A stretch of DNA of 64,000 nucleotides from Thermomonas sp. (GCF_016720345.1 NZ_JADKKV010000001.1); one strand, 5' to 3'; positions 1,410 through 42,255 are shown, counted from the first letter of the stretch. Numbers and translations: made by a program. The notes: generated by a model from the sequence alone, not told the origin.

Positions 1410-1486
<77 letters not shown>

Positions 1487-1507
1487 ATCGATGCATTGTG
1501 TGACGAG

Positions 1508-1532
1508 AAAACCGCCCGCGTGGCGGTTTTTT
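1508..1532 (+). terminator. Rho-independent terminator after tRNA-Pro
   Basis: ACCGCC(1511-1516) / loop CGCGT / GGCGGT(1522-1527), followed by a T6 run to 1532. Confidence 0.75.
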
Positions 1533-1613
1533 CATGCCTGCGGGATGCCGGGCCTGTCCACATCCGGAGCCATCCTGCGTTTGTAACGGTACGTCCCTTG
1601 CGCCAGGTGCCGC

Positions 1614-5270: not shown

Positions 5271-5316
5271 CGTTCAACCGGGTCGTGCGCCGCCGGCGTC
5301 CGGTGGCGCACGCGGG

Positions 5317-5805: not shown

Positions 5806-5845
5806 GGTGGATCCTCCTGGTTACTGAAAGAAAGAATGCGGGATG

Positions 5846-7330: not shown

Positions 7331-7391
7331 GGTGTGTGTGCTCGCTTGGTTCAGTGCGTCGGGAGACGGGCGATCGGGCGGCGGCTGCCGC

Positions 7392-7904: not shown

Positions 7905-8110
7905 GACGATCCCCGTGCGCGAGTTGTTGGGCGGTACCGCGTGGCGGTGCCTGTGGAGTTGGACGGAGCGTCGCGCCGGGCGCGGACTCCGCTTGATGGT
8001 GGAACGAGTCTAGGAACGCAGCCGTGGGCGCAACATCCGTCGGACGGCCAGACTTGGGCATATGCCGTTCGACGTGGCCGCCGACCCTTGGCGATTGCGT
8101 GCGCCGGGCA

Positions 8111-9196: not shown

Positions 9197-9244
9197 GGCG
9201 CGGCTCCGCTGGATTCGTAGGCTGTGGTTAACGGTGGAAGATCG

Positions 9245-14169: not shown

Positions 14170-14185
14170 GCGTTCAGTCCTGCCT

Positions 14186-15604: not shown

Positions 15605-15695
15605 GCCGTCGCTCCAACCGATGCCTCGGGCATGGCTTGCCCGCCGCTGTTGCCGTGTGTACGTGGCCCACCCCAGGTGCAACGCAATCCGGTGC

Positions 15696-16949: not shown

Positions 16950-17157
16950 TGGGGCATTCGTTCGCAGCGCCCGCGGGGCGCGATGCAACGCATCTTTGGC
17001 GAGCGCGCCGCGCGCAACCATATGTCGGAGGAGCTATGCCGTTGGAACGGCGCATCCGTATTGATGACCGCTGGTGGCGCGGAATATCGTGAACACCCGA
17101 GAGCGCGGTTGCGTTCGCCACATCGCGCGTGGAGACACCACCCATGAAGGTGCCGCA

Positions 17158-17826
17158 ATGAAGGTGCTCATCGCGGACGACCATCGCCTGATCATCGAGG
17201 GCGTCAAGATCAAGCTCGCCGAGCTTGATCCGGCGCTGGAAGCGGTGGTGGCGATGAACCTGGAAGAGCTGGACCGGGCGGTCGCCGCGCATGCGCACGA
17301 ACTCGACCTCGCGCTGGTCGACATCGCGATGCCCGGCACCCATGGCTTCGAGCACGTGGCGCGGCTGCGGTCGCAGGCACCGGCGCTGCCGGTGATCGTG
17401 CTGTCCGGCTCGGAGGACGTCGAACTGATGCGCGCCCTGATCGACCTCGGCGTGCTCGGCTTCATCCCCAAGGCGTATTCGCCCGAGGTCATGCTCTCGG
17501 CGATCCGGCTGGTGCTGGCTGGCGGCATCTACGTCCCGCCACTGCTGCTGGCGAATGCGCAGGCGCAAGGGTGGCAGCCGAGCGAGGCGCCGGCGGCGGA
17601 GGGCGCGCCCTCGCGCTCGATCGATGGCCTGCGCAACCTGCTGACCGAACGCCAGATCGACGTGATGCGCCTGCTCTCGCAGGGCAAGCCGAACAAGCTG
17701 ATCGCGCGCGACCTCGGGATCAGCGAGGGCACGGTGAAGATCCACCTGGCGGCGATCTTCCGCGCGCTGAACGTGCGCAACCGGGTCGAGGCGGTGGTCG
17801 CTTCGCGCAAGCTGCAGGGCCTGTAG
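17158..17826 (+). CDS. NarL/FixJ-type response regulator (REC + LuxR HTH)
   Basis: ATG 17158 (MKVLIADDHRLIIEG); phospho-acceptor context LALVDIAMPG; LuxR HTH LTERQIDVMRLLSQGKPNKLIARDLGISEGTVKIHLAAIFRALNVRNRVEA. It is divergent from the TraB-like/tssK operon. Confidence 0.9.
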   Translation: MKVLIADDHRLIIEGVKIKLAELDPALEAVVAMNLEELDRAVAAHAHELDLALVDIAMPGTHGFEHVARLRSQAPALPVIVLSGSEDVELMRALIDLGVLGFIPKAYSPEVMLSAIRLVLAGGIYVPPLLLANAQAQGWQPSEAPAAEGAPSRSIDGLRNLLTERQIDVMRLLSQGKPNKLIARDLGISEGTVKIHLAAIFRALNVRNRVEAVVASRKLQGL

Positions 17827-17932
17827 CACCCCAGTCCGCGGGCCATAGTGCGTCCGCCGTATTGTCCGCGGATTCGCGCGGGCGCAGCCTGAGCACGTAT
17901 GCACGGCCCGCACGCGGCCGTGGAGGCTCGCC

Positions 17933-21778: not shown

Positions 21779-22879
21779 ATGAGCCTGGGCACCCCCATCG
21801 ACGGCGCCACCGCCAGCCCGCTGGTCGCGCCCGGCGACCCGATGCAGCCGGCGATCGACCGCCTGCTCAACGATCCCGGCCGCTTCGGCTTCTTCCAGGC
21901 GGTGCGGCTGCTGTACAGCGTCGGCGGCTTCGACGGCCGCGGCACCGGCGCCCGCCCCGGCCCGCTGCGCTTCACCACCCCGGCCTCGCTGTCGTTCCCG
22001 CCATCGGAGCTGCATTCGATCGCGCAGGCGGATGCCAGCACCCGCGTGTGCGTCAACTTCTTCGGCCTCACCGGGCCCTCCGGAGTGCTGCCGCGCACCT
22101 ACACGGAGCTGCTGATCGCGCGCAAGCAGGTGCAGCGCGACCAGAGCGCGCAGGAATTCTTCGACCTGTTCAACCACCGGCTGGTGTCGCTGTTCTGGCT
22201 GGCATGGGCCAAGCACCGGCCCGAAATCGGCCGCCAGTTCGGTTTCAACAATTCGGTCTACCGTTACCTGGAGCACATCGTCGGCCTTGGCACGCCGGCG
22301 CTGCAGGCGCGGCTGCATCCGACCAGGCGCGGCGCCACGCCGGTGAAGGCGCTGCCCAGCGCGGCCCTGAGCTACTTCTCCGGCCTGATCGCGCAGCGCC
22401 CCCACGGCGAACGCGCGATCGCGCAGGTGGTGTCGGCGGTGGTCGCGGCGCCGGTGCAGGCGACCGGCTGCCTGGGCACCTGGCAGGACATCGCCGCCGA
22501 TGCGCGCACCCGGCTCGGCCGCGGCAACCACCGCCTCGGCGCCGGCTGCGTGCTCGGCACCCGCTACTGGGACCGGCAGACCACCCTGCGCCTGACCATC
22601 GGACCGATCGACCGCGCCAGGTTCAACGCCCTGCTGCCACGCGGCGCCAGGCTGGCGGACATCATCGAACTGACCCGCTTCCTGACCGGACTGGCGCTGG
22701 ACCTGCGCATCCGCCTGTCGCTGCGCGCCGACCAGGTCCCGCCGCTGCGGCTTGGCGCACGCGACCAGGACCGCCCGCAACTGGGCTGGAACACCTGGCT
22801 GCGCGGGCGCAGCGATCCGCGTCCCGCGAACGACTGCGAATTCCACTTTTCCGCCCTTGGAGGCCAATCATGGCACTGA
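21779..22879 (+). CDS. tssG: T6SS baseplate subunit TssG
   Basis: 366 aa; LLNDPGRFGFFQAVRLL...NFFGLTGPSGVLP...LGTRYWDRQ are TssG hallmarks. It lies directly downstream of tssF. Confidence 0.9.
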   Translation: MSLGTPIDGATASPLVAPGDPMQPAIDRLLNDPGRFGFFQAVRLLYSVGGFDGRGTGARPGPLRFTTPASLSFPPSELHSIAQADASTRVCVNFFGLTGPSGVLPRTYTELLIARKQVQRDQSAQEFFDLFNHRLVSLFWLAWAKHRPEIGRQFGFNNSVYRYLEHIVGLGTPALQARLHPTRRGATPVKALPSAALSYFSGLIAQRPHGERAIAQVVSAVVAAPVQATGCLGTWQDIAADARTRLGRGNHRLGAGCVLGTRYWDRQTTLRLTIGPIDRARFNALLPRGARLADIIELTRFLTGLALDLRIRLSLRADQVPPLRLGARDQDRPQLGWNTWLRGRSDPRPANDCEFHFSALGGQSWH

Positions 22880-25539
22880 ACCTGCGCGCGCTGATCGCAC
22901 GCCTGAACACCACCGTCCGCGGCGCGATGGAAGGCGCGGCGGGCCTGTGCATGTCGCGCGGCCACTACGAGGTCGAGGTCGAGCACGTGCTGCTGAAGCT
23001 GATGGAGGTGGAGAACACCGACATCCGCCGCATCCTGCGCCAGTTCGAGATCGCGCCGGAGGCGCTGGAACGCGAGCTGGGCAAGGCGCTCGACGGCTTC
23101 AAGGCCGGCAACCAGCGCACCCCGGCGTTGTCGGCGATGATCCCGAAGCTGTTCGAGGCCGCATGGGGCTGGGCGTCGATCGAATACGGCGAAGCCAAGA
23201 TCCGCAGCGGCCACGTGCTGGTCGCGCTGCTGGCGGATTCGGAACTGCGCCGGCTGGTCAGCGTCAGCGCGCGTTCGCTCGAGAAGATCAATTTCGAGAC
23301 CCTGACCAAGAATTTCCATGCGCTCACCGAGGCCTCCAGCGAAGCGCGCGATGCGCGCGCCCTGGGTGACGCCGGCGGCGCCCTGTCGGGCACCGGCGCC
23401 GACGCGGCAACCCCGGGCGCGGCCGCAGCCGGCGGCAAGCCCAGCCGCACGCCGAACCTGGACCAGTACTGCATCAACCTGACCCAGCGCGCGCGCGAGG
23501 GCAAACTGGACCCGGTGCTCGGGCGCGATGCCGAGATCCGCCTGATGATCGACGTGCTGACCCGGCGCCGGCAGAACAACCCGATCCTCACCGGCGAGGC
23601 CGGCGTGGGCAAGACCGCGGTGGTCGAGGGACTGGCCGCGCGGATCGCCACCGACGACGTGCCGCCGATCCTGCGCGGGGTCGAACTGCTGTCGCTGGAC
23701 CTTGGCCTGCTGCAGGCCGGCGCCAGCGTCAAGGGCGAATTCGAGAACCGGCTGAAGGGCGTGATCGAGGAGGTCAAGTCCAGCCCCAAGCCGATCATCA
23801 TGTTCATCGACGAGGCGCACACCCTGATCGGCGCCGGCGGCGCGGCCGGCCAGAACGATGCGGCCAACCTGCTGAAACCCGCCCTGGCGCGCGGCGAGAT
23901 GCGCACCATCGCCGCAACCACCTGGAGCGAATACAAGAAGTACTTCGAGAAGGACCCCGCCCTCACCCGTCGCTTCCAGGTGGTCAAGGTCGACGAGCCC
24001 GACGATGCCAAGGCGGTGTCGATGCTGCGTGGGGTCGGCCAGGCGATGGCCGCGCACCACAAGGTGCGCATCCTCGACGAGGCGATCACCGAAGCGGTGA
24101 AGCTGAGCTCGCGCTTCATCCCGGGCCGCCAGCTGCCGGACAAGGCGGTCAGCGTGCTCGACACCGCCTGCGCCAAGATCGCGATCGGCCAGAACGCCAC
24201 CCCGGCGCGGATCGAGGACGCGCGCAGGCGGCTGGACGTGCTGGCCACCGAGCGTGCGCAACTGGAAAAGGAAGCCGCCGGCGGCAGCGACCATGGCAAG
24301 CGCCTCGCCGAGATCGCCGAGGAGACCGCGGGGGCCAGCGAAACCCTGGCCGCGGACGAGGCCCGCTTCGCGCAGGAGAAGGAACTGGTGGCGAAGATCC
24401 ACGCCGAGCTCGACAAGGTCGAGGCATTGCCGGCCGATGATCCCGGTCGCGCCGACGCGGTGGCCACGCTCAACGCCATCCGCGCCGAGCTGAAGGCACT
24501 GCAGGGCTTCGAGCCGATGATCCTGCCGGTGGTGGATTCCAGCGCGGTCGCCGAGATCATCGCCGGCTGGACCGGCATTCCGGTCGGCCGGATGGTCGCC
24601 GACGAGATCCAGACCGTGCTGCGCCTGCAGGACACGCTTGAGGAGCGCGTGATCGGCCAGAGCCACGCGCTCGAGGCGATCGCCCAGCGCGTGCGCACCT
24701 CGCGCGCCAACCTGGAGGACCCGGACAAGCCGAAGGGCGTGTTCCTGCTGGTCGGCACCTCCGGCGTCGGCAAGACCGAGACCGCGATCGCGCTGGCCGA
24801 TGCACTGTACGGCGGCGAGCGCAGCATGATCACGATTGCGATGTCCGAGTACCAGGAGGCGCATACCGTCAGCAGCCTGAAGGGCAGCCCGCCCGGCTAC
24901 GTGGGCTATGGCGAGGGCGGCGTGCTGACCGAGGCGGTGCGCCGCCGGCCGTATTCGGTGGTGCTGCTGGACGAGATCGAGAAGGCGCACCCGGACGTGC
25001 TGGAGCTGTTCTTCCAGGTGTTCGACAAGGGCCGCATGGAAGACGGCGAAGGCCGCGAGATCGATTTCCGCAATACGCTCATCATCCTCACCTCCAACGC
25101 CGGCACCGACCTGGTGATGCAGGCCTGCAACGAGTCCGAGGAACTGCCGACGGTGGCCTACCTCAACGAGTTGCTGAAGCCGGAGCTCAACCGCACCTTC
25201 AAGCCGGCCTTCCTCGGCCGCACCGCGGTGATCCCGTACTACCCGCTGCGCGACGAGAACATGCGCAAGATCGTGCGCCTGAAGCTCAACAAGATCGGCA
25301 AGCGGATCAAGGCCAACCACGGCGCCACCCTGGAATACGACGAGGCGGTGGTGGACGCCATCGCCAGGCGCTGCACCGAGGTCGATTCCGGCGCGCGCAA
25401 CATCGACAACATCCTGACCGGGACGGTGCTGCCGGAGGTGTCCGGCCACGTGCTGGAGCGGATGGCCGAAGGCGGCACGATCAGCGAGATCCGGATCGCG
25501 GTCGGCGGGGACGGCGGTTTCGCGTACGCGGTGACCTGA
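22870..25539 (+). CDS. clpV: T6SS AAA+ ATPase ClpV (TssH)
   Basis: The start is ATG 22870 (MALNLRALIARLNTTVRGAMEGAAGLCMSRGHYEVEVEHVLLKL); the 1163-aa track ORF is a shadow extension over tssG. There are two Walker A loops (GEAGVGKTAVVEGLA and GTSGVGKTETAIALA). About 889 aa. Confidence 0.93.
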   Translation: MALNLRALIARLNTTVRGAMEGAAGLCMSRGHYEVEVEHVLLKLMEVENTDIRRILRQFEIAPEALERELGKALDGFKAGNQRTPALSAMIPKLFEAAWGWASIEYGEAKIRSGHVLVALLADSELRRLVSVSARSLEKINFETLTKNFHALTEASSEARDARALGDAGGALSGTGADAATPGAAAAGGKPSRTPNLDQYCINLTQRAREGKLDPVLGRDAEIRLMIDVLTRRRQNNPILTGEAGVGKTAVVEGLAARIATDDVPPILRGVELLSLDLGLLQAGASVKGEFENRLKGVIEEVKSSPKPIIMFIDEAHTLIGAGGAAGQNDAANLLKPALARGEMRTIAATTWSEYKKYFEKDPALTRRFQVVKVDEPDDAKAVSMLRGVGQAMAAHHKVRILDEAITEAVKLSSRFIPGRQLPDKAVSVLDTACAKIAIGQNATPARIEDARRRLDVLATERAQLEKEAAGGSDHGKRLAEIAEETAGASETLAADEARFAQEKELVAKIHAELDKVEALPADDPGRADAVATLNAIRAELKALQGFEPMILPVVDSSAVAEIIAGWTGIPVGRMVADEIQTVLRLQDTLEERVIGQSHALEAIAQRVRTSRANLEDPDKPKGVFLLVGTSGVGKTETAIALADALYGGERSMITIAMSEYQEAHTVSSLKGSPPGYVGYGEGGVLTEAVRRRPYSVVLLDEIEKAHPDVLELFFQVFDKGRMEDGEGREIDFRNTLIILTSNAGTDLVMQACNESEELPTVAYLNELLKPELNRTFKPAFLGRTAVIPYYPLRDENMRKIVRLKLNKIGKRIKANHGATLEYDEAVVDAIARRCTEVDSGARNIDNILTGTVLPEVSGHVLERMAEGGTISEIRIAVGGDGGFAYAVT

Positions 25540-25663: not shown

Positions 25664-27790
25664 ATGCCCTCCAGCCTTTCCACCAGCAACCGGATGTACT
25701 TCGTCACCCTGCACGACTACGGGGAGGACGACCTGCTGATCGAGGAAATGACCGGACAGGAGGCGATGTCGCAGCTGTTCCAGTTCCGCCTGCGCCTGCT
25801 GTCCGAGCGCGACGACATCGACCCGCGCAGGATCATCGCCAAGCCGGCGATCCTGCGCACCGAGACCCGCGACATCCACCACATGGGTGGCGAGCGCCAC
25901 TGGAACGGGGTGGTCTCACGCTTCCAGCGCACCGGCCGCACCGCCTCGCCGGATGGCGACAGCGTGTATTCCTACGAATGCGACATCGTGCCGTGGTTCT
26001 GGTTCCTGACCCAGCACGAGGATTGCCGCATCTTCCAGAACAAGACGGTCCGCGAGATCGTCGAGGCCATCTTCGAAGAGTTCGCCTACACCGATTTCCG
26101 CTTCGACCTGACCGAGAACCACCCGTCGCTGGAGTACTGCACGCAGTACCACGAGACCACCTTCGACTTCATCTCGCGGCTGCTGGAACGCGAGGGCATC
26201 CACTACTACTTCCGCCACTACGAGGAAGGCGGGGAAACCCGGCACCTGCTGGTGTTCAGCGACAACAACGGCAGCAACCCGGCGCTGGACCCGGACACGG
26301 TCCCGTTCGACGAGGAAGGCCATACCGAGGAATTCGACGCGATCCAGGCGCTGGCCCTGGACCAGCAGATGCGCACCCGCAAGGTCACCCTTGGCGACTG
26401 GGACTTCGTGCGCAAGCGGTTGCTGCGCGAAGACACGCCAACCGTGCTGTCGATCGGCGCGGACCGCGACCTGGAGCGCTACCGCTACCCGGGCGGCTTC
26501 GTCGAGCCGGCGCTCGGCAAGTACCGTTCGCGCGTGATCATGGAGGCGGAGGAATCCAGCCACATGCGCTTCCGTGGCAACGGCAAGGTCCGCACGCTGG
26601 CGCCCGGCCACACCTTCACCCTGGAAGACCACCCCTTCGATGAATTCAACATCGAATACATGGTGCTGTCGGTCTGGCACCACGGCCGCAACAACCTGAC
26701 CGGCAATGGCGCGCCATCGGACTACGCCAACGAATTCAGCCTGCAACCGCACGAGGTCACCTGGCGCGCCCCGCTGTCCACGCCGAAGGGCCTGGTGCGC
26801 GGCCCGCAGACGGCGCTGGTGACCGGCCCCGCGGGCGAGGAGATCCACACCGACCAATACGGCCGGATCAAGATCCAGTTCCACTGGGACCGCCTGGGAC
26901 GCTACGACGACCGCAGCTCGTGCTGGGTGCGGGTGGCGCAGACCTGGGCCGGGAACGGCTTCGGCACGATGTTCATCCCGCGGGTCGGGATGGAGGTGGT
27001 GGTCGACTTCCTGGAGGGGGACCCGGACCAGCCGATCGTCACCGGTTGCGTCTACAACGGCGTCAACCGGCCACCGTATGCGCCCCCAGGCCCCGGCCCG
27101 GCGACCAAGTCGGGCATCAAGACCTTGTCCTCGAAGGGTGGTGGCGGCACCAACGAGCTGCTCTTCGAGGACAAGAAGGGCAGCGAGGAAGTCTTCCTGC
27201 AGGCGGAGAAGGACCTCAACGTCAAGGTCAAGGCCAACCGCACCGAATCGGTCGGCGGCGATTCCAACCACGACCTCGCCGGCAAGCAGCGGATATACGT
27301 CGGCGGCGACCGCCACCTCAAGGTGGATGGCGCCAGCACCATGGTCGTCAAGGCCGACTTGATGCAGGGCAGCAAGGGCGACCAGGAACTGCTTTCGGAG
27401 CAGGAGTTGCGCCTGCTCGGGAAGTCCTCGGTCCGGATCGGCAGCAGGAGCGGCATCGACATCCATGGCGGGATGAAGCTGGTGATGGAGGCGAACACGC
27501 TGATCAGCCTCAAGGTCGGCGGCAGCGGCATCGTGATCGACCCCAGCGGGGTCAGCGTGATCGGGCCGATCATCAAGCAGAACTCCGGCGGCGCGCCCAG
27601 TGCCGCGAGTGCACCGTCCGGCTTCAGCGCCGAGAAGGCGCAGGGCTCCCATGGCACCGAGGATGGCCAGGTCACCGACCCCGGCCAGCAGTTGCAGGCG
27701 CAGGCGCTGCGCAATGCCGCACTCGCCGGCCAGCCGTTCTGCGCCGAATGCGAAGCCGCCCGCGCCGCCTACGCGGCGCTGATGGCATGA
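25664..27790 (+). CDS. vgrG: T6SS spike protein VgrG (TssI)
   Basis: 708 aa with the gp27-like N-terminus (MSQLFQFRLRLLS...WFWFLTQHEDCRIFQNKTVREIV...FDFISRLLEREGIHYYF) and a gp5 OB/beta-helix region (WAGNGFGTMFIPRVGMEVVVDFLEGDPDQPIVTGCVYN). The short C-terminal tail ends ...ALAGQPFCAECEAARAAYAALMA. Confidence 0.93.
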   Translation: MPSSLSTSNRMYFVTLHDYGEDDLLIEEMTGQEAMSQLFQFRLRLLSERDDIDPRRIIAKPAILRTETRDIHHMGGERHWNGVVSRFQRTGRTASPDGDSVYSYECDIVPWFWFLTQHEDCRIFQNKTVREIVEAIFEEFAYTDFRFDLTENHPSLEYCTQYHETTFDFISRLLEREGIHYYFRHYEEGGETRHLLVFSDNNGSNPALDPDTVPFDEEGHTEEFDAIQALALDQQMRTRKVTLGDWDFVRKRLLREDTPTVLSIGADRDLERYRYPGGFVEPALGKYRSRVIMEAEESSHMRFRGNGKVRTLAPGHTFTLEDHPFDEFNIEYMVLSVWHHGRNNLTGNGAPSDYANEFSLQPHEVTWRAPLSTPKGLVRGPQTALVTGPAGEEIHTDQYGRIKIQFHWDRLGRYDDRSSCWVRVAQTWAGNGFGTMFIPRVGMEVVVDFLEGDPDQPIVTGCVYNGVNRPPYAPPGPGPATKSGIKTLSSKGGGGTNELLFEDKKGSEEVFLQAEKDLNVKVKANRTESVGGDSNHDLAGKQRIYVGGDRHLKVDGASTMVVKADLMQGSKGDQELLSEQELRLLGKSSVRIGSRSGIDIHGGMKLVMEANTLISLKVGGSGIVIDPSGVSVIGPIIKQNSGGAPSAASAPSGFSAEKAQGSHGTEDGQVTDPGQQLQAQALRNAALAGQPFCAECEAARAAYAALMA

Positions 27791-27911: not shown

Positions 27912-28487
27912 GTGCCGATGAACGCTCGGAGACGAGACCAGGTGATCCCGCAAGGCCAATACGAATCGCTGCACAAACTGGTCTTCGGGCAGCGTGCGCG
28001 GGCCGTCTACGCGGTCATGGACGGCGCCATGATCGAAGGCCTGCCCGGGCGGCTGGCGGAGATCGCACCCGATGCCGCCTGCCTGTTCGAAGGGGCGCTG
28101 GATCCCATGCTCAGCGCCGCCGCCCCGTGGCTGGTGAAACTGGACCCGGACTCCACCGCCACCCAGATGGCATTGCGCGACGGCTGGAACGGCCACTGGG
28201 GCATCGTGTTGCAGACCGACCCCGCGCTCGACCTGCGCGCGGTGCGTTCGCACCTGCGCCGGGTCCTGCGCGTGCGCGCGCCGGATGGCGCCAGCATGCT
28301 GTTCCGCTTCTACGACCCGCGCGCGTTCCGGACCGTCATCCCGGTGCTGGACCCGCCTGCTCGCCGGGAGTTCTTCGGCCCGATCCACGGCGTTTTCGTG
28401 GAGGGTCGCAGCCCCGACTCCGTGCTGTTCTTCGCCCGCGATGGCAGGCCGGAGCCGCAGGCGTTGCCGCTTGCGTCCGCGGCCTGA
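27912..28487 (+). CDS. DUF4123-family T6SS adaptor/chaperone (Tap/Tec-like), short form
   Basis: 191 aa; VYAVMDGAMIEGL...AAPWLVKLD...GHWGIVLQT...LRAVRSHLRRVLRVRAPDGASMLFRFYDPRAF follows the DUF4123 consensus as I remember it. It is immediately downstream of vgrG. Confidence 0.75.
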   Translation: MPMNARRRDQVIPQGQYESLHKLVFGQRARAVYAVMDGAMIEGLPGRLAEIAPDAACLFEGALDPMLSAAAPWLVKLDPDSTATQMALRDGWNGHWGIVLQTDPALDLRAVRSHLRRVLRVRAPDGASMLFRFYDPRAFRTVIPVLDPPARREFFGPIHGVFVEGRSPDSVLFFARDGRPEPQALPLASAA

Positions 28488-33086: not shown

Positions 33087-36000
33087 TCAGAAATCGCCGC
33101 AGCTGTTCTTGCGCTCGGTCTCGAAGCAGTTGGTCAGGTTCGGGCGCGAACGCACCTTCGCCCATTCGTTCGACAACTCGTCGCCGGACGAGGCCAGTTG
33201 CTGGTCTTCCAGCGAGGCGTTGAGCGCGCACATCGGGGCGCCGCCGAAGTTGCGGTCGTAGACGTAGGTGTTGACCGTTTCCCGGATCAGGTCGATCGGG
33301 GTCGACGACAGTTGCGGCAGCGGGATGATCTGCAACGCGGTGGCGTTGCCCGGTGCCTGCACGAACACGTAGTTGGTCGCGCTGCTGCCGCCGTTGACCG
33401 GATAGAAGCCGATCGGCGAAAGCAGGCCGGCCGGGCTGTTCCAGATCACCCCGCTGCCGAACACGCTCTCGATGGTGTCGCCATTGCGGAAGCCGGTGAC
33501 GCTGCCGGTGAACAGCGGGTTCTCGGTGCCGAGGTAGCGGATGAAGCTGTCGGCGGTGAACAGCAGGGTGGCCGGGGTGATCCCGAGCGTGCCGGGCACG
33601 AACTGCAGGCGGTAACCGGCGGCGGAGGTGAACTGCCCGGTGATCGGGTAGTTGCCGACGTTGCTGCCGATGGTCGCGGTGGTCACGCCCACGCCGGAGG
33701 CGACGTTGGCCGCGCTGTCGCCCAGGATCGCGCCGCTGACGGTGAAGGTGAAGGTCGGGTTCGGCAGCCCGTATTCGCGCATGAAATCGTCGAAGGTGAT
33801 CACCGCGGTCGGCTGCTGCACGTAGATGAAGTGGTTGTCCGCGGCCGGCACGGTCACCCCGCACTGGCCGAGGTAGGCGCAGCCGTACAGGTTCGGCAGG
33901 TTGCCGTCGCCGGCCAGGCCGCCGCGGTCCTCGCCGACCCAGCTGTTCGCCCACACCCGCCAGTCGCCGCTGGCGACCAGGCTGGCGCCGGCCGCGTTCT
34001 GCAGGGTGTTCGCGGTCACCAGGTCGATGTTCACCCCGGACACGCCCGCGTTCAGCGTCATGTCGCCGGCGAGGTTGCGCACGAACACGTCGCCGCCGGC
34101 GGAGATGCCGGTGGCCCCGAAGCTGGCGAGTCCGTTCGACGAGGCGTCCATGCCCAATCCGGAGACGCTGCCGATCGCCAGCGCATCGACGTCCTCGTAT
34201 TCGAAGTCGCCGCCGGCCGAGCCGGCCAGGGTGGTCGCCGCGACGTTGTTGCCGGCGTCCGCCAGCAGCACGCTGCCGCCGGCGCGCGCCAGCAGGCTGT
34301 GCGCGGTGATCGCGCCGCCGCTGGACTGGGTGATGTCGCCGCCGCTGGACAACGCCAGGGTGCCGGTGCCGACGTCGAGTGCGGCCTGGATGTCGATGCC
34401 GCCGCTGCCGCCGTCGTTCTGCAGGGTCAGGTCGCCGCTGCGGCTGGTCGCGCCCAGCACCCGGATCGCACCCGCATGCAGGTTGCTGCCGATGATCAGT
34501 TCCGGCGCATCGATCAGCGCAAGTTCGGCACCGCTGAGGGCGAAGCCGGCACTGCCGCCGCCAATCAGGATTTCGTCGGCCGTGCGTTCGGTGAGGCCGC
34601 CGTTCGCGTCGACCCCGCCCGGGCGCAGGTTGACCGCCATCCCGCTGGCGATGGTGCCGGCGATGCGCAGCGCATCGCTGCTGCCATCGTTGCCGGCGCG
34701 CACCACCACCAGGCTGTTGCCGGCATCGACGCTGGACCCGGCCTCCAGGCTGACGCCTGCGCCGCTGCCGCCTTCGCCGCTGAGTTCGATGCCGCCGCCA
34801 TTGGTGGCGATCGACACGCCCTGCCCGATCACCAGGCCATCCGAACCGGCACCGGTCCCGCGGCCGCGCAGGTCGAAGTGGCCGCTTTCGGTGCTCAGTT
34901 CGCCACCGGTCAGGGCCAGCCCGACCGTGGCACCGATGCCGGTCACCGCGATCGCGCCGGTGGTGGTGCTGATCCCGGACTGGCCGGCGAAGTTCACGCC
35001 GGTCCCGGCGGCCGCGTTGCCGAACACGCGCACGTCACCGGCCCCGGCGACCAGCTGCGCATTGGCAAGGTCCACGCCGGTGCCGTTGCCGCCGGACGCC
35101 GCGCCGATCACGTCGATGACGCCGCCACCGCTGGCGACCGTGTTGCCCTGCATCAGCACGCCCGCGGTCACGCCGCTGCCGTTGATGCTGATCGCGCCGC
35201 CACCGCTGCCGATCGCGAACGCGCCGCCGTCGCCCAGCTGCACGCCGACGCCGCCGGCGCTGGTCCCGCTCACGCTGATGCTGCCGCCGTTGGTGGCGAG
35301 GCCGCCGCCGGTCACGCGGACGCCTGCGGTGGCGGTGGCGGCCAGCGCCTCGCCACTGAGGGTGATGTCGCCGCTGTCGGTGTCGATCGCGCCATCGGCG
35401 ATGTCCAGGCCGAAGTTCGCGCCGGTACCGATCAGGGTGATCGCGCCACTGGTCGTGCTCACCCCTGCCCCGTTCGCGAACAGCACGCCGATCCCGAGCG
35501 GGGACGCGCCATCAACGGTCACGTCGCCGGCACCGCCGACGAGGTCGACGCCGTCCGAGTACACGCCGATCGCGTTCGCCGCCGATGCCGAGCCGATGAC
35601 GGTGATGTCGCCACCGCCGCCGTCGATGCCGCCGTCCAGCAGCTCCACGCCCGCCAGCGCGCCATCGCCCTGCAGCAGGACCGCGCCGCCCGCGCTGGCC
35701 AGCGCCGAACCCTCGGCGAACGACAGGCCAACCCCGGCCACGCTGCTGCCGACCACGCTGATCGCGCCGCCATTGCTGTCCAGCAGGCTCGCGCGCAGCG
35801 CCACGCCGGTGCCATCGGCACCGGCATCGCCCTGCAGGCTGATCGCGCCGGCATCGGCCAGCAGCCCGAAGCCGTCCAGGTCGACCGCATTGAACGCCGC
35901 CGCGCTGGCGCCGGTGATGGTGATCGCACCGGTTCCACCGCCGCCGCTGGCGTCGATGCGTCCGCTCCACAGGAACACGCCGCCGGTATCGCCGGCGCCG

Positions 36001-36500: not shown

Positions 36501-38316
36501 GCTGCTGCCGGCCTGGGTCGCCGTCAGGCTGCCCCTGGTCGTTGCCGTTGACCACCTCCAGCGAGGCGCCGCCGATCATCCACATGCCTGCCGTGCTGCC
36601 GCCACCGGCATCCACGTCGAGGCCACGCAGGTCGAGGTCGCCGCCGCGCGCGATGGTGCCGACCAGCCCGCCGCCCACCGCGCCATGCGCGTCGATCGCG
36701 CCATAGGCGTAGACGCTGGTGCCGGCCAGGGCCACCTGGCCGCCGTTGCCGCCCAAGCCGCGGGCATCGATCGATGCGGTCTCGCCCAGCACGGCCCCGC
36801 CGTTGTTGGCGGACACCACCACGCTGCCGCCATCGATGCCGCCGCTGGCATTGACGGACGCGCCGTTGGCGAGCCCGGACGCGGTTTCGCCCACGATCAG
36901 GACGTCGCCGCCATTGCCCTGCGACGCCTGCACGTCGATGCCACCCTGCAGCACCGCGGCTCCGCCCTGCGACGACATCGCCACCGTGCCGCCGTTGCCG
37001 CCACCCTTGGCCCCCTTGGCCGACAACAGGCCCGCCACCACGATGTCGCCCCCGGCCGCCAGGCCCACCTGGCCGCCGTCGCCGGCGTCCATGGCATCCG
37101 CGCTGATCACCGTGGCCGCGGCCATGCCGATGCTTCCGACCGCCTGCACCAGCACCTGGCCGGCGACTCCGCGCTGGGTATCGGCGCTGATGCCCGACAG
37201 CCCGAGCATGGTCACGTCGGCGGTGGACTGGATGGTGACGCTGCCGCCGCCTTCACCGCCGGAGGCATTGATGAAGCTGCCGACCGAAAGCGGATCGGCG
37301 GGCGCCAACGGCGTCGGGTCGTTGTTGAGGAACGCAACGCCGTTGCCCTGGATCAGCACCGAGCCGCCGGTCTCGCCAACGTCACCGCTGACGTCGATGC
37401 GGCCAGCCGTGAACGGGGTCGACGCGTCCGACAGTACCCCTGGCGCACCCAGGAACACCGGGCCACCGATGGAGGTCAGCTCGATGCGTCCATTGACGTT
37501 GGCGATGCTCTGCGCGCGCAACAGGCCGTCGGCATAGATCACGCCACCGGTGCCGGCGGCAGTGGCGGCGTTGCGCAGGAGGATGCGGCCACCATCGGCG
37601 GTCATCGAGCCGAAGCGGTCCTGGAACAGCTGGGTGTCCACCGCGGGCGCCGCGTTGATGGTGACCTGGGTGAGGCCATCGCCGACGAAATCCAGGGTGA
37701 CCGAGGTGCCCGCGCCGAAGCCGATGTTGCCGCCGTTGGCGACGATCGCGCCGCTGTTGCGCAAGTTGGTGCCGACGAAACCCACGCCACCGGCACCGGC
37801 GGTGATGTCGGCTGCGTTGCTGAGCACCGGCGTGCCGGTATTGCCGGCGAACAGGTAGCGCCCGGTCGACAGGCCGGTGAGGAAATCGCCATCGCTGAGG
37901 GCAAGGGTCGAGGCCACCAGCCCGCCGACATTGACCTGCGCGTTGGCGCCAAAGGTGATGCCGTTGGTGTTGATGATGAACACGTTGCCGTTGGCGGTCA
38001 GGATGCCGTTGATCGCGGTCGGCATGGTGCCCAGCACGCGGTTGAGGGTGACCCCGTTGCCCGGCTGGTTGAACGCCACGCCGAACCCGTTGGCGATGTT
38101 GAAGGTGCCCCAGTTGATGATCGCGCCCCGGGTGGTCTGGGTGATCGTCATCTGGTTCCCGGCTTCGTTGATGCTGGCGGTGCCGTTGACCACGTTGCCG
38201 CCGGTGGGCAGGTTCTGGGCAACCGCGGCCGGCAGCGCCATCGCGCCGACCAGCGCCAGCGCCAGGCGCCGGCGGCGCAGGCAGCGGAGTTGCTTGGAAG
38301 TCAGCTTGGTGCGCAT
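36415..38316 (-). CDS. TpsA exoprotein, N-terminal fragment with TPS (hemagglutination activity) domain
   Basis: ATG 38316 lies 6 nt after GAGGAG. The signal peptide is MRTKLTSKQLRCLRRRRLALALVGAMALPAAVAQ. The TPS domain reads NLPTGGNVVNGTASINEAGNQMTITQTTRGAIINWGTFNIANGFGVAFNQP...NRVLG...INGILTANGNVFIINTNGITFG. The last ~40 codons before the stop at 36415 look like out-of-frame junk. Confidence 0.85.
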   Translation of the reverse strand: MRTKLTSKQLRCLRRRRLALALVGAMALPAAVAQNLPTGGNVVNGTASINEAGNQMTITQTTRGAIINWGTFNIANGFGVAFNQPGNGVTLNRVLGTMPTAINGILTANGNVFIINTNGITFGANAQVNVGGLVASTLALSDGDFLTGLSTGRYLFAGNTGTPVLSNAADITAGAGGVGFVGTNLRNSGAIVANGGNIGFGAGTSVTLDFVGDGLTQVTINAAPAVDTQLFQDRFGSMTADGGRILLRNAATAAGTGGVIYADGLLRAQSIANVNGRIELTSIGGPVFLGAPGVLSDASTPFTAGRIDVSGDVGETGGSVLIQGNGVAFLNNDPTPLAPADPLSVGSFINASGGEGGGSVTIQSTADVTMLGLSGISADTQRGVAGQVLVQAVGSIGMAAATVISADAMDAGDGGQVGLAAGGDIVVAGLLSAKGAKGGGNGGTVAMSSQGGAAVLQGGIDVQASQGNGGDVLIVGETASGLANGASVNASGGIDGGSVVVSANNGGAVLGETASIDARGLGGNGGQVALAGTSVYAYGAIDAHGAVGGGLVGTIARGGDLDLRGLDVDAGGGSTAGMWMIGGASLEVVNGNDQGQPDGDPGRQQRAGRRHQRGAGHRYQHPAGHQRWRGQFR

Positions 38317-38326
38317 CTCGTACTCC

Positions 38327-40021
38327 TCAGAACGCCTTCTGGATCGACCAGAACAAACGCGGGTTGCGGTCGCCGCCATCGGTGACACCGGGGTCGGTGC
38401 TGCGCCAGGCGATGCTGAAATTCATGCTGAGCTTGCCCGGCCTGCTCCAGTTCAGGCCCAGGCCATGGCCGCGCAGGCTGCGGCTGGTGAACACGTCGAA
38501 CGGCCGCGGATCGTGGAAGAAGTCGCCGTGCGCCGCGTCGTAGAAGGCGAACAGGGTGGTATCGGGACGTGGCGCGTAGCGCAGTTCCACGGTCGCCAGC
38601 CAGCCGTCGTCGACCAGCACCTCGCCGGTGGCATAGGCGCGCACCGCCTTCGGCCCGCCCAGCGAGAGCTTCTCGTACGCGTCCAGGTTCTTGCTGGCGC
38701 GCTGCATGCCGGTGCCCAGGAACAGGCTGAATTTCGGTGCCAGGGACTGCAGGCGCGCCAGCTGCAGGGTCGCCTTGCCGAAACTGCCCTCGGTGTCGTA
38801 CCCGAACGGAGGATTGTCGAAGGCCTCGCTGGTGGCGTCCTTGATGTCGAGGTTGCCGCGGTACAGCAGCGCGTTGGCGCTGGTGTAGCCGCCACCAAGC
38901 AAGCCATCGCGGCGTTCGAACGACAGGCCGATGCCGGCGCCGCGGACGCGCTTGTGGGTTTCGAAACCCACCGCCTCGAAGCGGTCGGTCAGGTCCTTGT
39001 TGTCGATCACCCCGCGCACGAACAGGTTGGTCGAGCGCTGGCGGATGAGCGGATAACTGAAGGACAGGTCGGCGACGTTGCCGGTGCCGGTCGGTTCCAG
39101 CGGCGCGAACGGGCCGCCAAGCTCGTATTGCACGCGCGCCAGCCCGCCACCGATGCGCAGGCCGCGGTACCCCACCGGGGTTTCATAGGAGATGCGCCCG
39201 AACGCGGTGTGCATGCCCTCCGCCAGCATCAACCGCAGGTCGAGGTTGTCGCCGCGTCCGAACGGACTGGCCCAGCGCAGGCTGCCGGTGATGCGGTGGC
39301 GACCGGAATCGCTGGTGCCATGGTTGTCCACTTCCAGCCCGTATTGCAGGCGGTCGCGTTCGCCGACCTGCACCACCAGGTCGGTGGTGCCGGTGGCCGC
39401 GCCGGCGGAGATCGCCGACTGCGGCTTGATCCCCGGCAGGTCGGACAGCAACAGCATCGCGCGTTCGTACTGGCGGCCGTTGAGCGGCTTGCCGGGCTCC
39501 AGGATCGCCAGCGTCCCCGCCACCCGTTCCTGCGCGACCGGCACGCCCTCGGCGAGCTCGATGCTGACGTTGCCGAGCACGCCCTCGCTGATGCTGATCC
39601 TGACCACGCCATCGACCACTTCCTGCACCGGCACGTAGGCCTGGACCAGGCCGAAGCCGCGCTTCTGGTACACCGCGACCGCGCGCGCGGCGAGCTGCTC
39701 GAGGTCGGCGAAGGTGACGCTGGTGCCGATCCGATCGGCCACCGCGGCCTGCAACTCGCTGTCCGCCACCCCGGTGGCACCGACGAACTGCACGCCCTTG
39801 AGCACGAAGCTGGCCTGCGCCTGCATCGCCATCTGCGGCTCCGGCAGCGCCTGCGCCTGTTGCGGGGCGGACCCCGGCGCAGGCGTCGCCTCCTGCGCGG
39901 CGGCGCCGTCCGCGGCCTGCGCGAATGGCACGCAGGCCATCAGCAGCGCGGCCGCAAGCAGGTTGGTCGGCGGCATCCGCCGTGGTTGGTGGTTGCGCAT
40001 CCGGTCAGCCCCCAGGTTCAT
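38327..40021 (-). CDS. TpsB outer-membrane transporter (ShlB/FhaC/HecB family)
   Basis: The start is ATG 40021 (MNLGADRMRNHQPRRMPPTNLLAAALLMACVPFAQA), in an ATGA overlap with the CHAT gene stop. A POTRA region (FVLKGVQFVGATGV...VVDGVVRISISEGVLGNV) is followed by a beta-barrel ending ...NPRLFWSIQKAF (terminal Phe). Confidence 0.88.
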   Translation of the reverse strand: MNLGADRMRNHQPRRMPPTNLLAAALLMACVPFAQAADGAAAQEATPAPGSAPQQAQALPEPQMAMQAQASFVLKGVQFVGATGVADSELQAAVADRIGTSVTFADLEQLAARAVAVYQKRGFGLVQAYVPVQEVVDGVVRISISEGVLGNVSIELAEGVPVAQERVAGTLAILEPGKPLNGRQYERAMLLLSDLPGIKPQSAISAGAATGTTDLVVQVGERDRLQYGLEVDNHGTSDSGRHRITGSLRWASPFGRGDNLDLRLMLAEGMHTAFGRISYETPVGYRGLRIGGGLARVQYELGGPFAPLEPTGTGNVADLSFSYPLIRQRSTNLFVRGVIDNKDLTDRFEAVGFETHKRVRGAGIGLSFERRDGLLGGGYTSANALLYRGNLDIKDATSEAFDNPPFGYDTEGSFGKATLQLARLQSLAPKFSLFLGTGMQRASKNLDAYEKLSLGGPKAVRAYATGEVLVDDGWLATVELRYAPRPDTTLFAFYDAAHGDFFHDPRPFDVFTSRSLRGHGLGLNWSRPGKLSMNFSIAWRSTDPGVTDGGDRNPRLFWSIQKAF

Positions 40022-42255
40022 TTCGCCACCTTCAAACGCCAGTTGCCGATCAGGTTGAACGGCGCCCAATAGAACGGGTGCGCGGTTTCCGGATCGGCCA
40101 TCACCGCGCGCTGCGCGTCGCGCATCGCGTCCTGCACCTGCTCGCCGCCGGCGAGTTCGGCGTACAGGGTGGTCATCAGTTTCTCGGTGGCGGCGTCGGA
40201 GACCGGCCACAGCGAGGCCAGCAGGGTCGAGGTACCTGCGGACAGGAACGAGCGGGTGAAGCCCAGCACCTCATCGCCGTTCTCGACCCGGCCCAGGCCG
40301 GATTCGCAGGCGGACAACGCGATCATCGCCACGTTGCCCAGGTCCATGCCGATCACGTCGCGGGCTTCCAGGTAGTTCGGCTTGCCGTTCTCGTCGGCCA
40401 GCAACACTTTCGAGTGCAGCGGGTCGAGCGTATCGACCGTCGCGTGCGCGGCGATGTGCACCAGCCGCGACTGCGGGGCGTTCGCGGTGAAATTGGCCTT
40501 GTTCGCCTCATCCTTGAAGAACAGCTTGGCGCCCGGGAACTGCCGCGAGAGTTCGTGCACCTCGCGCTCGGCGCCGGGCAGCGGATCCGCCACGTTCGGA
40601 TCGATGGTCGGGTTGCCGAACGCCAGCAACTGCGCCTCCACGCTCGGGGTGCGCTCGGCCAGCCGCGCGGCGATGCTGATCGACGGCGCGATCGAGATCG
40701 GGTTGCGCTCGATCAGGTACTGGCCATCGAGGCGCAACGCCTGGAACGGCAGGTAGTGCAGCGGCCCGTGCGGGACGATGACCACGCGCTTGCCGGCTTC
40801 GACCCCGAGCGGTGCCAGCAGCAGTTGCCCGATCTTGTCGCCGATCGCCGCGGCATTCGGGTTCAGCTTGATCAGCGCATCGCGGTAGGCATCGACCAGC
40901 CGCGCCAGGTCGTTTCGCGGCAACGCGGCCGGGAACGCCGCCTCGCGCACGCCCTCGCTCGACAGCACCCACGCCATCAGCCGGTCCGGCAATGCGTGGT
41001 AGGCCACCACCACCTCGTCCGCGCGCAGCATCTTCTGCAGGCTGGCTGCGTCCAGCGCCTTGCCGCCATCGCCCTTCAGTTCGGCGCGCCCGGCAACCGC
41101 ATCCAGCAATGCCCGGGAGCGGCTGCGCTCGCTGATGTCGAAGGCCCGCGCCGGCTGCCCAAGCTTGCTGTGCATGCCGATCGCGCGTTCGAACACGTTC
41201 TGCAGGTCGGAGAACAGGCCCATCTTGAATTCGTCGCTGCGGAACTGCGAGCGCGCCTGGTCGAACACGTCGATCGCCTGGTCCAGCGATTGCGCCGCCT
41301 CGGCGTCATTGCCCAACGCCGCCTGGCTCTTGGACATGCCGTCCAGCGCCCACGCGCGGTAGAAGTCCTCATCGCCATCCGCCGGTGCGCTTGCCAGCGC
41401 CTGGTACAGCGCCAGCGCCTCGGCCGGCTTGTTCTCGGCCAGCAGCAGGCGCCCGCGCGTGCGCTGCAATTGCGCGCGCTGCTTCGCCTCCTGGGGTTCG
41501 GCAAGCGCATCCAGGGTGCTGCGCGCGCGCACCAGGTCGCCGGACAGGATCAGCGCATTCGCAAGCGATGCCTCCACCAGCGGGCGGAAACGGTCGGAAC
41601 TGCCCTGCCGCGCCTCTTCGTAACTGGCAATGGCCTCGTCGTACCTGCCCTGGCGGGTGCGCACGTCGCCGATCACCTTGCGCGCCGGACCGTTGACCTG
41701 GGTCGGGTTCACCCCGGGATACTTCAGCGCGAGGTTGGCGAACTGCTCGGCGCGTTCCAGCTGGCCGGCGTAATTGAAGGCGATCGCAAGGTCGCGGTAG
41801 GCCTTGCCCAGCAGGTCCTTGTTGCCGGTCTGCAGGGCCACGTGCAGCGCCTTGCTGGCGGCGCGGGCGCTTTCGCGGAATTCGCCCTTCTCGGCCAGTT
41901 CCACCGCCTGGCTGCAGTAGGCGTAGCCGTCCAGCTTCACCGCTTCACGGTCGTACAGCGCCGCGCCATCGGCGGCCAGCGCCAGCGCGGTGTCGGCATC
42001 ATCCAACCGGCTGATCGCCGCGAGCGCGGCACGCGCCTCGCTGTCGGCGTCGGCGTCGCCTGCCTGCGGCGCCGGCAGGTCGCTGGCCGGGGCGGCCTCC
42101 TGCGCCGATGCGGCAGGCGGGGATTCCTGCAGGCCCGACCCGGGATCCGGCGCGCATGCGGCCCGTACCGGAGACACGGGCAGCAACGTGGAGAGCAGGA
42201 TCGATGCCAGCAGGAACGGCACGAAACGGAGTTTGGTCGGCGCGACGCGAGGCAT
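40018..42255 (-). CDS. exported TPR-repeat CHAT-domain (caspase-fold) protease
   Basis: 745 aa with a signal peptide (LRFVPFLLASILLSTLLPVSPVRA) and TPR-like helical repeats in the N-terminal ~330 aa. The C-terminal CHAT domain carries a His/Cys dyad context (SRLVHIAAHATVD ... AMIALSACESGLG) and ends HPFYWAPFNLIGNW. Confidence 0.85.
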   Translation of the reverse strand: MPRVAPTKLRFVPFLLASILLSTLLPVSPVRAACAPDPGSGLQESPPAASAQEAAPASDLPAPQAGDADADSEARAALAAISRLDDADTALALAADGAALYDREAVKLDGYAYCSQAVELAEKGEFRESARAASKALHVALQTGNKDLLGKAYRDLAIAFNYAGQLERAEQFANLALKYPGVNPTQVNGPARKVIGDVRTRQGRYDEAIASYEEARQGSSDRFRPLVEASLANALILSGDLVRARSTLDALAEPQEAKQRAQLQRTRGRLLLAENKPAEALALYQALASAPADGDEDFYRAWALDGMSKSQAALGNDAEAAQSLDQAIDVFDQARSQFRSDEFKMGLFSDLQNVFERAIGMHSKLGQPARAFDISERSRSRALLDAVAGRAELKGDGGKALDAASLQKMLRADEVVVAYHALPDRLMAWVLSSEGVREAAFPAALPRNDLARLVDAYRDALIKLNPNAAAIGDKIGQLLLAPLGVEAGKRVVIVPHGPLHYLPFQALRLDGQYLIERNPISIAPSISIAARLAERTPSVEAQLLAFGNPTIDPNVADPLPGAEREVHELSRQFPGAKLFFKDEANKANFTANAPQSRLVHIAAHATVDTLDPLHSKVLLADENGKPNYLEARDVIGMDLGNVAMIALSACESGLGRVENGDEVLGFTRSFLSAGTSTLLASLWPVSDAATEKLMTTLYAELAGGEQVQDAMRDAQRAVMADPETAHPFYWAPFNLIGNWRLKVAK

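Follow-up and report, generated by a model that had tools for sequence, protein, structure and literature searches.

Why should a two-partner secretion (TPS) system, in its textbook form a two-component exporter, carry a protease gene? The question is raised by a 64,000-nucleotide stretch of DNA from Thermomonas sp., a member of the Lysobacteraceae (GCF_016720345.1, NZ_JADKKV010000001.1; hereafter the window), in which positions 33,087 to 42,255 hold three genes on the minus strand. The first encodes a putative exported protein with tetratricopeptide repeats (TPR) and a CHAT domain, and the second and third are tpsB and tpsA, encoding the transporter and the exoprotein of a TPS system. Our tentative answer, to which we give a probability of about 45%, is that this cassette is a module associated with type VI secretion (T6SS) in which a periplasmic TPR-CHAT protease would process or release the TpsA surface fiber by way of a retained C-terminal tail. 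An earlier, sequence-only reading of this DNA had proposed that the CHAT protein is exported and functionally tied to the TPS pair, and both proposals gained support; the adjoining T6SS genes, the invariant tail of TpsA, and a frameshift in tpsA had all been overlooked.

The TPS pair itself is readily recognized. TpsB matches the Pfam families POTRA_2 (PF08479, 6e-14) and ShlB (PF03865, 2.1e-20), and TpsA matches the TPS domain (PF05860, 6.7e-26, in the upstream of the two pieces into which its gene is split) as well as the NCBIfam model TIGR01901 (2.7e-19, with 68.9 bits against a cutoff of 29.1); the downstream piece carries two MBG_2 domains (Pfam, 6.4e-22). Judged by these domains, the two proteins would form a bona fide type Vb (two-partner) secretion pair. 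As had been noticed at the outset, Gly, Ala, Ser, Thr, and Asp dominate the intact TpsA, of which they make up 55.6%, and the protein has no recognizable toxin, there being no Pfam toxin or pretoxin match.

The three genes are also tightly packed, whichever start of tpsB holds. On the minus strand, a 745-codon open reading frame (ORF) at 40018 to 42255 encodes the CHAT protein, the ORF ending at 38327 contains tpsB, and tpsA is spread over two ORFs. The ATGA overlap proposed for CHAT and tpsB is present at 40018 to 40021 (GCG AAA TGA; the ATG that overlaps this stop lies at 40021). Which start tpsB uses is not certain, since 564 amino acids (aa) result from a gene call at this ATGA and 557 aa from the NCBI assembly call at an ATG 21 nucleotides downstream. 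The tpsB stop and the tpsA start are 10 nucleotides apart (TTC TGA GGAGTACGAG ATG), and the tpsA ribosome-binding site, which had been placed over the tpsB stop, can be seen as GGAG after the stop within TGAGGAGTACGAGATG. A scan of the three-gene operon for sigma-70 promoters and terminators gave no signal above chance.

The strongest evidence that the protein with the CHAT domain belongs to the TPS pair comes from comparative genomics. A locus search seeded with an alignment of 11 sequences, in which each GTDB species was represented by a single genome, yielded 78 loci from Xanthomonadales and Burkholderiales, with CHAT identities of 54 to 83%. The genera represented are Thermomonas, Lysobacter, Luteimonas, Pseudoxanthomonas, Stenotrophomonas, and Rhodanobacter, and further loci come from Variovorax, Xenophilus, Xylophilus, Pigmentiphaga, and Alcaligenaceae. 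Wherever the contig extends far enough downstream, CHAT is followed by tpsB and then by tpsA, all on one strand, the exceptions being contigs that end early. About 70 loci with enough DNA, from Xanthomonadales, Burkholderiales, and metagenomes, keep this order, down to about 33% CHAT identity; the metagenomic ones include five family loci that are 33 to 41% identical to the distant seed CHAT. The synteny of CHAT and TPS genes, on which the sequence-only reading had staked itself, is conserved across two proteobacterial classes and metagenomes.

For controls, we used the generic CHAT loci that made up most of what was returned by a metagenome scan seeded with distant members (an alignment of 14 sequences), by their catalytic-site pattern only. 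TPS neighbors were absent from these loci (n = 75) except at L116 and L129. The former, on a metagenome contig of 36% GC (positions 3 to 12130), encodes TpsB, a 935-aa TpsA, an exported TPR protein, a TPR-CHAT protein, and a DUF3160-TPR-CHAT protein; the latter, of 50% GC, encodes a TPR-CHAT protein followed by a POTRA protein. The distant CHAT proteins at both loci carry signal peptides. Within the family, the three-gene unit is tandemly duplicated in L006 (2253 to 19203) and L007 (2152 to 19864), and apparently likewise in L012, where an upstream tpsA stands directly before the second cassette and the contig starts inside that tpsA. The three genes are evidently inherited and duplicated as a unit, and the link is, as far as these loci indicate, specific to the exported TPR-CHAT family. 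Taken together, synteny, duplication of the whole unit, and export signals strongly support a functional tie between the predicted exported TPR-CHAT protein and the TPS pair.

Fusions between the components were not found. The long CHAT proteins of our library (P0183, P0191, P0194, and P0234) consist of TPR, PD40, and AAA domains and have no TPS domain that would make them CHAT-TpsA fusions, and an apparent CHAT-TpsB fusion ORF in L085 is an artifact of a stop-free overlapping frame in DNA of 71% GC, in which CHAT has its own frame and stop. Two other arrangements may be recorded here. In L034, a second tpsA stands directly after the first. In L164, from Nostoc punctiforme plasmid pNPUN01 (9923 to 21953), three CHAT genes occur with CHASE2, DUF928, and DUF1822 beside NHLP bacteriocin export, and there are no TPS genes.

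The CHAT protein has the makings of an active protease outside the cytoplasm. It is laid out as a signal peptide (residues 1 to 32), a disordered linker ending near residue 67, a helical/TPR domain at about 69 to 390 (with Pfam TPR families over residues 195 to 332), and a caspase-fold CHAT domain at residues 472 to 738 (PF12770, 8.2e-68); no peptidase family besides CHAT was matched in Pfam. The His and Cys motifs pointed out earlier are present, HIAAHA providing H600 and H604 and LSACESG providing C650, and all three are retained without exception in 47 family members, whose identity to the CHAT protein of the window is 28 to 52%. Such invariance of the His/Cys dyad, down to 28% identity, argues for selected catalysis. 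The TPR-CHAT architecture extends to about 60 full-length clusters (at 50% identity), down to about 30% identity, in an exhaustive search of representative proteins. Cys114, which is non-catalytic, is near-invariant as well.

An AlphaFold2 model of the protein (predicted local distance difference test [pLDDT], 87; predicted template-modeling score, 0.84) has one N-terminal helix, a disordered linker, helical repeats, and the CHAT domain. When searched against the PDB with Foldseek, the model matched Csx29 (E value, 9e-17), DdvA (8rot_A; 3e-14), and separase (4e-12), each with probability 1.00, and among the top matches the highest query TM-score, 0.54, was that of DdvA. The modeled CHAT protein is therefore of caspase/separase fold. 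At the sequence level, a PDB search with the single CHAT protein gave no match, and among the best 60 matches of a search with the family profile DdvA was the sole CHAT structure listed (1.7e-10), with mostly TPR proteins otherwise.

Export was judged by reading the sequences for signal peptides and lipoboxes. The N terminus, MPRVAPTKLRFVPFLLASILLSTLLPVSPVRA/AC (the slash marking the putative cleavage point), has a basic n-region, a hydrophobic core of about 20 residues, and an AXA site. In the Thermomonas orthologues, AXA is followed by x-C-A-P and in those of Variovorax and Rhodanobacter by Q, and many distant representatives have clear lipoboxes (LAGC, LSAC, LVAC, or LAAC). All orthologues carry one or the other type of signal, which speaks for the export that the sequence-only reading had made a premise. 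Because of the Sec signal peptide, or the lipobox in many relatives, the protein probably acts outside the cytoplasm, and the family as a whole is predicted to be extracytoplasmic, either soluble or lipid-anchored. The earlier claim that a periplasmic TPR-CHAT protein tied to a TPS pathway is undescribed holds in part: DdvA is a solved precedent for a periplasmic TPR-CHAT protein (PMC11506125), but in open-access papers and preprints, among them a TPS review, a survey of Omp85/TpsB proteins, a review of T6SS in Xanthomonadales, and an in silico survey of T6SS from 2009, we found none that links CHAT to TPS or to T6SS.

The most likely contact point between the CHAT protein and TpsA is the Cys-rich, invariant C terminus of the latter. 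In the window it reads C1696 ... EWAKVRSRPNLTNC1730 ... C1739-G-D-F-COOH, and the pattern C-x17-L-x3-W-x3-R-x4-L-x2-C-x8-C-x2-F-COOH is invariant in 65 non-redundant TpsA orthologues, distant metagenomic ones included. The eight invariant positions are C, L, W, R, L, C, C, and F, with three cysteines within the last 47 residues, and the stretch D-x-L-x2-E-W-x2-V-R-x-R-P-N-L is at least 90% conserved in the same 65 sequences. The remainder of TpsA is far looser: its length is very variable among the orthologues, the middle of the fiber is 30 to 62% identical, and the last ~390 residues are 46 to 77% identical. Of the five cysteines of mature TpsA, three lie in the tail. A protein search with the C-terminal 187 aa gave 21 matches, all of them fragments. 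Two further cysteine arrangements were seen: a conserved-looking C-x5-C pair upstream of the MBG domains (aa 1479 and 1485, at about 33850 to 33880; LYGCAYLGQCGV) and two spaced cysteines in the C-terminal region of the L116 TpsA.

The second recurrent feature of the cassette is its neighborhood. A complete T6SS cluster adjoins it at 5861 to 31451, as established by gene calls and Pfam searches on near-identical contigs with identical query proteins, by tblastn, and by NCBIfam (Table 1). Toward the cassette, the order of genes is VgrG, DUF4123 chaperone, two unnamed ORFs, PAAR-like protein, OmpA-like protein, kinase, and tpsA. The two unnamed ORFs (118 and 518 aa) may be an immunity/effector pair. 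When flank ORFs of the family loci were clustered, the recurrent neighbors were the hybrid histidine kinase, the OmpA-like protein, the PAAR-like DUF4280 protein, and the DUF4123 chaperone.

Other genomes place T6SS genes beside the cassette in differing arrangements. Caballeronia sp. M1242 and Burkholderia sp. YI23 have a cassette (CHAT 45% identical) embedded between tssJ and tssA, in a cluster with further genes for regulators of the PpkA, PppA, and TagH types and for an MltA-3D protein. TssA, TssB, and TssC genes directly follow tpsA in L085, and in L083 a gene for a PpkA-type kinase is transcribed divergently from CHAT. Upstream of the cassette, VgrG and ClpV are encoded in Rhodanobacter and TssB and TssC in Lysobacter and Stenotrophomonas; in Variovorax, a VgrG gene immediately precedes or follows the cassette, or else TagF-TssM is encoded downstream. 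Metagenomic loci are flanked by T6SS genes as well, and the adjacency extends over at least 7 genera in two classes. T6SS-related genes occur in the flanks of 33 of the 65 family loci of at least 15 kb and in none of 20 generic CHAT loci; the former count is a lower bound, because the flanks are 10 kb and tpsA fills most of the downstream one. The comparison indicates a recurrent co-localization of the cassette with T6SS core genes in unrelated genomes. The lytic-transglycosylase-like MltA-3D protein (17933 to 19798 in the window and 30 to 1880 in L163) is common to the Thermomonas and Caballeronia T6SS clusters, at 43 to 44% identity, and a response regulator gene lies beside it in both. These shared genes suggest a common T6SS lineage carrying the cassette.

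The reading that we prefer would join these observations as follows. TpsA would leave through TpsB with its N terminus first, as a long β-helical fiber rich in Gly, Ala, Ser, Thr, and Asp, and its last ~50 residues would stay in the periplasm as an oxidized plug, so that the fiber is held on the cell much as the "cysteine hook" of CdrA is held in CdrB. The TPR domain of the CHAT protease would recognize this tail and the protease would cut it, a candidate site being the conserved, basic E-W-x-[KR]-V-R-x-R-P that lies after the first tail cysteine and before the second, and the cut would mature or release the fiber. The T6SS context of the cassette suggests that the fiber serves the neighboring T6SS, for example by keeping target cells close enough to be fired at or by signaling contact, and the adjacent hybrid histidine kinase, or PpkA elsewhere, may control or sense the process.

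Several points weigh against this reading. For every family member, the support comes from sequence and predicted structure, and TpsA is a putative substrate. We infer the topology of the tail, periplasmic or surface, solely from other TPS systems. AlphaFold2 gave the Cys-containing tail a pLDDT below 50 from a shallow alignment, so the plug is without structural support, and a simple disulfide knot is not self-evident because the number of tail cysteines, three, is odd. The suggested cleavage motif is speculation: cleavage specificities differ within clan CD, with craspase cleaving after Leu or Met. In one family locus, L084, the 2 kb that follow CHAT contain no TPS gene. In the window strain the module may even be inactive, because tpsA is frameshifted there.

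The most serious competitor, on the unlikely side in our judgment, keeps the protease and changes its target. TpsA would sense contact or damage, its tail (or the absence of the tail) would activate the TPR-CHAT protein, and the cut would fall not on TpsA but on a regulator, namely the hybrid kinase or PpkA, each in its periplasmic part, or a T6SS envelope component, so that T6SS expression or firing is gated as has been proposed for DdvA or TagQRST-PpkA. The closeness of the model to DdvA, a periplasmic signaling TPR-CHAT protein (PMC11506125), favors this, as does the T6SS association, and there is no lack of candidate regulators. A hybrid kinase related to that of the window adjoins the cassette, in varying position, in 37 of 88 family loci; PpkA-type kinases are encoded in L083 and in the Caballeronia cluster; and a LuxR-type response regulator lies within the Thermomonas T6SS cluster. 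The kinase is, however, not universal, that of Thermomonas has no periplasmic sensor domain (Pfam), no target motif is known, and the one-to-one duplication of CHAT, TpsB, and TpsA together with the invariant tail is explained more simply with TpsA as substrate. A version that joins both ideas, with the cassette as a trans-envelope contact sensor in which engagement or loss of the fiber is passed to the tail, leads to TPR-CHAT cleavage, and licenses the T6SS via the kinase or PpkA, we hold to be unlikely. The kinase and the LuxR-type regulator, whose best NCBIfam matches are the NahK/ErcS family and ErdR, respectively, both below the curated cutoffs, may be a cognate pair regulating the island. 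Between tpsA and the hybrid kinase, 14 loci encode a protein of about 275 aa without Pfam or NCBIfam match (L041, 19118 to 19942, minus strand, and counterparts); these loci belong to Xenophilus, Xylophilus, Variovorax, and, in one case, Rhodanobacter.

The cassette might also be a stand-alone adhesin with a maturation protease that has landed in the same variable islands as T6SS genes without special coupling to them. An obligatory T6SS link does not follow from the family loci, since in about half of them the short flanks are free of T6SS genes; the position of the cassette relative to the T6SS genes varies, and in the window it sits at the edge of the cluster with housekeeping genes beside it. 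We nevertheless consider an absence of coupling decidedly unlikely, given that the cassette is embedded between core genes in the two Burkholderiaceae and again in L085, that the adjacency spans genera and classes in different arrangements, and that the count for the family is a minimum where that for the controls is zero. It is very unlikely, in turn, that the TPR-CHAT protein serves chiefly to chaperone or dock unfolded TpsA in the periplasm, with proteolysis secondary, as in clearing stalled TpsA. TPR domains do bind extended peptides, the gene order and the tight coupling to tpsB fit stoichiometric co-production, and TPS substrates traverse the periplasm unfolded (PMC5422565), but classical TPS systems need no dedicated chaperone, and the dyad would hardly have stayed invariant with its surrounding motifs across the 47 members. 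Barely credible is the idea of the CHAT protein as a second TpsB cargo, or an effector released outside. Its signal peptide and the place of its gene directly upstream of that for the transporter would fit, but it has neither a β-helix nor the TPS domain by which the TpsB POTRA recognizes its substrate (PMC5422565), the lipoboxes of many members should keep them membrane-anchored, and the long library proteins are TPR/PD40 proteins rather than TPS fusions.

The coordinates of the cassette and its neighbors are collected in Table 1. The GC content of the window, in 2-kb steps, is 65 to 73%, and its CHAT protein is identical to one annotated in metagenome-assembled genomes of Thermomonas sp.

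Table 1. Features of the three-gene cassette and of the adjoining T6SS cluster, in window coordinates
Feature	Position	Strand	Description and basis
TPR-CHAT gene, putative exported protease	40018-42255	(-)	ORF of 745 aa; Pfam, AlphaFold2, Foldseek
tpsB, Omp85/TpsB transporter	38327-40021	(-)	564 aa from ATG overlapping CHAT stop, or 557 aa from ATG at 40000; Pfam
tpsA, giant predicted β-helical exoprotein	33087-38316	(-)	Intact form 1742 aa; frameshifted in window; Pfam, NCBIfam
TPS secretion domain of TpsA, ~aa 33-282	37470-38220	(-)	PF05860, TIGR01901; after signal peptide MRTKLTSKQLRCLRRRRLALALVGAMALPAAVA/Q
Second, top-scoring MBG_2 (YGX-type) domain of TpsA	33585-33800	(-)	PF18676, two stretches; other MBG_2 lies upstream of this one; AlphaFold2 pLDDT ~75-82
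Cys-rich C-terminal tail of TpsA, last 50 aa	33090-33239	(-)	8 invariant positions, 65 non-redundant orthologues
GGGG run, one extra G, +1 frameshift in tpsA	36532-36535	(-)	Versus three near-identical contigs
Hybrid histidine kinase, HisKA-HATPase and degenerate receiver	31698-33062	(+)	Pfam; convergent with tpsA, 24 nt apart
TssC	5861-7156	(-)	
TssB	7446-7889	(-)	
TssM	~9245-12730	(-)	
TssL	12838-14169	(-)	
TssK	14186-15604	(-)	
TraB/GumN	15696-16877	(-)	
LuxR-type response regulator	17158-17826	(+)	
MltA-3D	17933-19798	(+)	
TssF	19919-21754	(+)	
TssG	21779-22879	(+)	
ClpV	~22870-25539	(+)	
VgrG	25664-27790	(+)	
DUF4123 chaperone	27942-28487	(+)	
118-aa ORF	28501-28857	(+)	
518-aa ORF	28859-30415	(+)	
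PAAR-like DUF4280	30479-30868	(-)	
OmpA-like	30879-31451	(-)	

The giant TpsA of about 1,700 residues that had been described for this locus exists for the repaired gene (1742 aa) but not for the window as it stands, where tpsA is not a single ORF. An extra G splits the gene into pieces running from 38316 to 36415 and from 36500 to 33087, carried by overlapping ORFs in different frames (36415 to 38388 and 33087 to 36500). The switch of frame lies inside cag ggg cag, at about 36532 to 36535, and removal of one G restores the reading frame. Three near-identical contigs (L001 to L003), with an identical CHAT protein and tpsA DNA that is 99.8 to 99.9% identical, have GGG where the window has GGGG and encode an uninterrupted TpsA of 1742 aa. 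The window tpsA would thus be either a pseudogene or the product of a homopolymer assembly error. Three of the few differences from these contigs cluster within 4 nucleotides (37044, 37045, and 37047), resembling a small multi-nucleotide substitution. In L038, from a canu long-read assembly of Thermomonas sp. S9 (9971 to 18442), CHAT, tpsB, and tpsA each seem to be split by frameshifts, and in L081 tpsB is split; indel errors seem to be common in these GC-rich genes.

Should our reading be correct, no earlier TPS system would have had a protease of its own encoded in the operon, here one that is periplasmic and of caspase/separase fold. To our knowledge, few natural substrates of bacterial CHAT proteases have been identified, and the invariant TpsA tail offers a concrete candidate. 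That the cassette is found time and again within T6SS clusters suggests an accessory function missing from current accounts, be it target capture, contact sensing, or post-translational control, in a T6SS lineage that is widespread in soil, plant-associated, and insect-symbiont bacteria. If the contact-sensor version held, a caspase-like proteolytic switch in the periplasm would be aiming a contractile weapon. Cultivable carriers are available in Variovorax, Caballeronia, Lysobacter, and Stenotrophomonas.

How does the cassette compare with known systems? It shares the TPR-CHAT fold and the dyad with Csx29 of the type III-E Craspase and with separase, which, unlike the CHAT protein described here, are cytoplasmic, Csx29 being bound to Cas7-11/gRAMP and activated by RNA. 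Identity with Csx29 can be dismissed: the NCBIfam model NF041237 scores 46.1 bits against a cutoff of 300, the neighbors are TPS, T6SS, and amino acid biosynthesis genes with no CRISPR genes among them, and PADLOC returned no defense-system match at the locus. With DdvA the CHAT protein has in common a periplasmic TPR and CHAT architecture with a canonical His/Cys dyad. DdvA, described as the only structure of a periplasmic TPR-CHAT protein, is an anti-sigma factor for which signal-induced proteolysis has been proposed (PMC11506125). It has a cytoplasmic zinc anti-sigma domain, a transmembrane helix, and an extracytoplasmic function (ECF) sigma partner, and it controls cyclic oligonucleotide-based antiphage signaling system (CBASS) and CRISPR genes. 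The CHAT protein of the window begins instead with a cleavable signal peptide and a disordered linker and has no anti-sigma domain or transmembrane anchor, nor is there a sigma gene among the called neighbors, so it is not an anti-sigma factor of this type.

Among the T6SS regulators, the TagQRST-PpkA-Fha-PppA pathway resembles the cassette in consisting of accessory envelope proteins encoded in T6SS clusters, and PpkA, PppA, and TagH are found in the Caballeronia cluster in which the cassette is embedded. No homology of its proteins to TagQ, TagR, TagS, or TagT is known, and what it encodes is a TPS pair plus a protease. Three-gene TPS operons are known (HMW1ABC and EtpBAC with their glycosyltransferases, HxuCBA, CdiBAI, and BcpAIOB), and they share with the cassette a TPS pair with one dedicated accessory gene. 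The accessory gene here would encode an exported caspase-fold protease, and the cassette lacks any glycosyltransferase, TonB receptor, immunity gene, or toxin tip. In particular, the cassette is not a contact-dependent inhibition system of the CdiBAI type: TpsA has no Pfam match to a toxin or pretoxin (VENN) domain, its C terminus is conserved rather than polymorphic, and the next gene is the convergent kinase and not an immunity gene.

The closest likenesses are to TPS systems in which proteases act on the C-terminal part of TpsA, and a 2017 review of TPS noted that the genes for maturation proteases are not part of TPS operons. In Bordetella, the periplasmic prodomain of FhaB is degraded by DegP and CtpA (PMC8263021), so that there, as proposed here, the C-terminal part of TpsA is periplasmic and its removal by proteases of the periplasm is regulated (PMC8263021; PMC5422565). 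The proteases of the FhaB/FhaC system (DegP, CtpA, and SphB1) are, however, general or unlinked serine proteases, and the prodomain is of ~1200 residues as opposed to the conserved tail of ~50 residues here. In Pseudomonas aeruginosa, CdrA, a TpsA protein, is set free when LapG, a cysteine protease of the periplasm, cleaves the C-terminal anchor that CdrA has there (PMC5422565; bioRxiv 10.64898/2026.07.13.738186). A Cys-containing C-terminal anchor with a periplasmic cysteine protease may have its counterpart here in an invariant Cys-rich tail with a dedicated, predicted exported protease. LapG is a calcium-dependent transglutaminase-like protease, controlled by LapD and cyclic di-GMP and encoded outside the TPS operon, whereas the TPR-CHAT protein belongs to clan CD and is encoded by the first gene of the operon; the context of the former is the control of biofilms by cyclic di-GMP and that of the latter is T6SS. 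The protease of the cassette is a CHAT protein and not a LapG homologue (DUF920/BTLCP) with its LapD, so the likeness would be one of mechanism alone.

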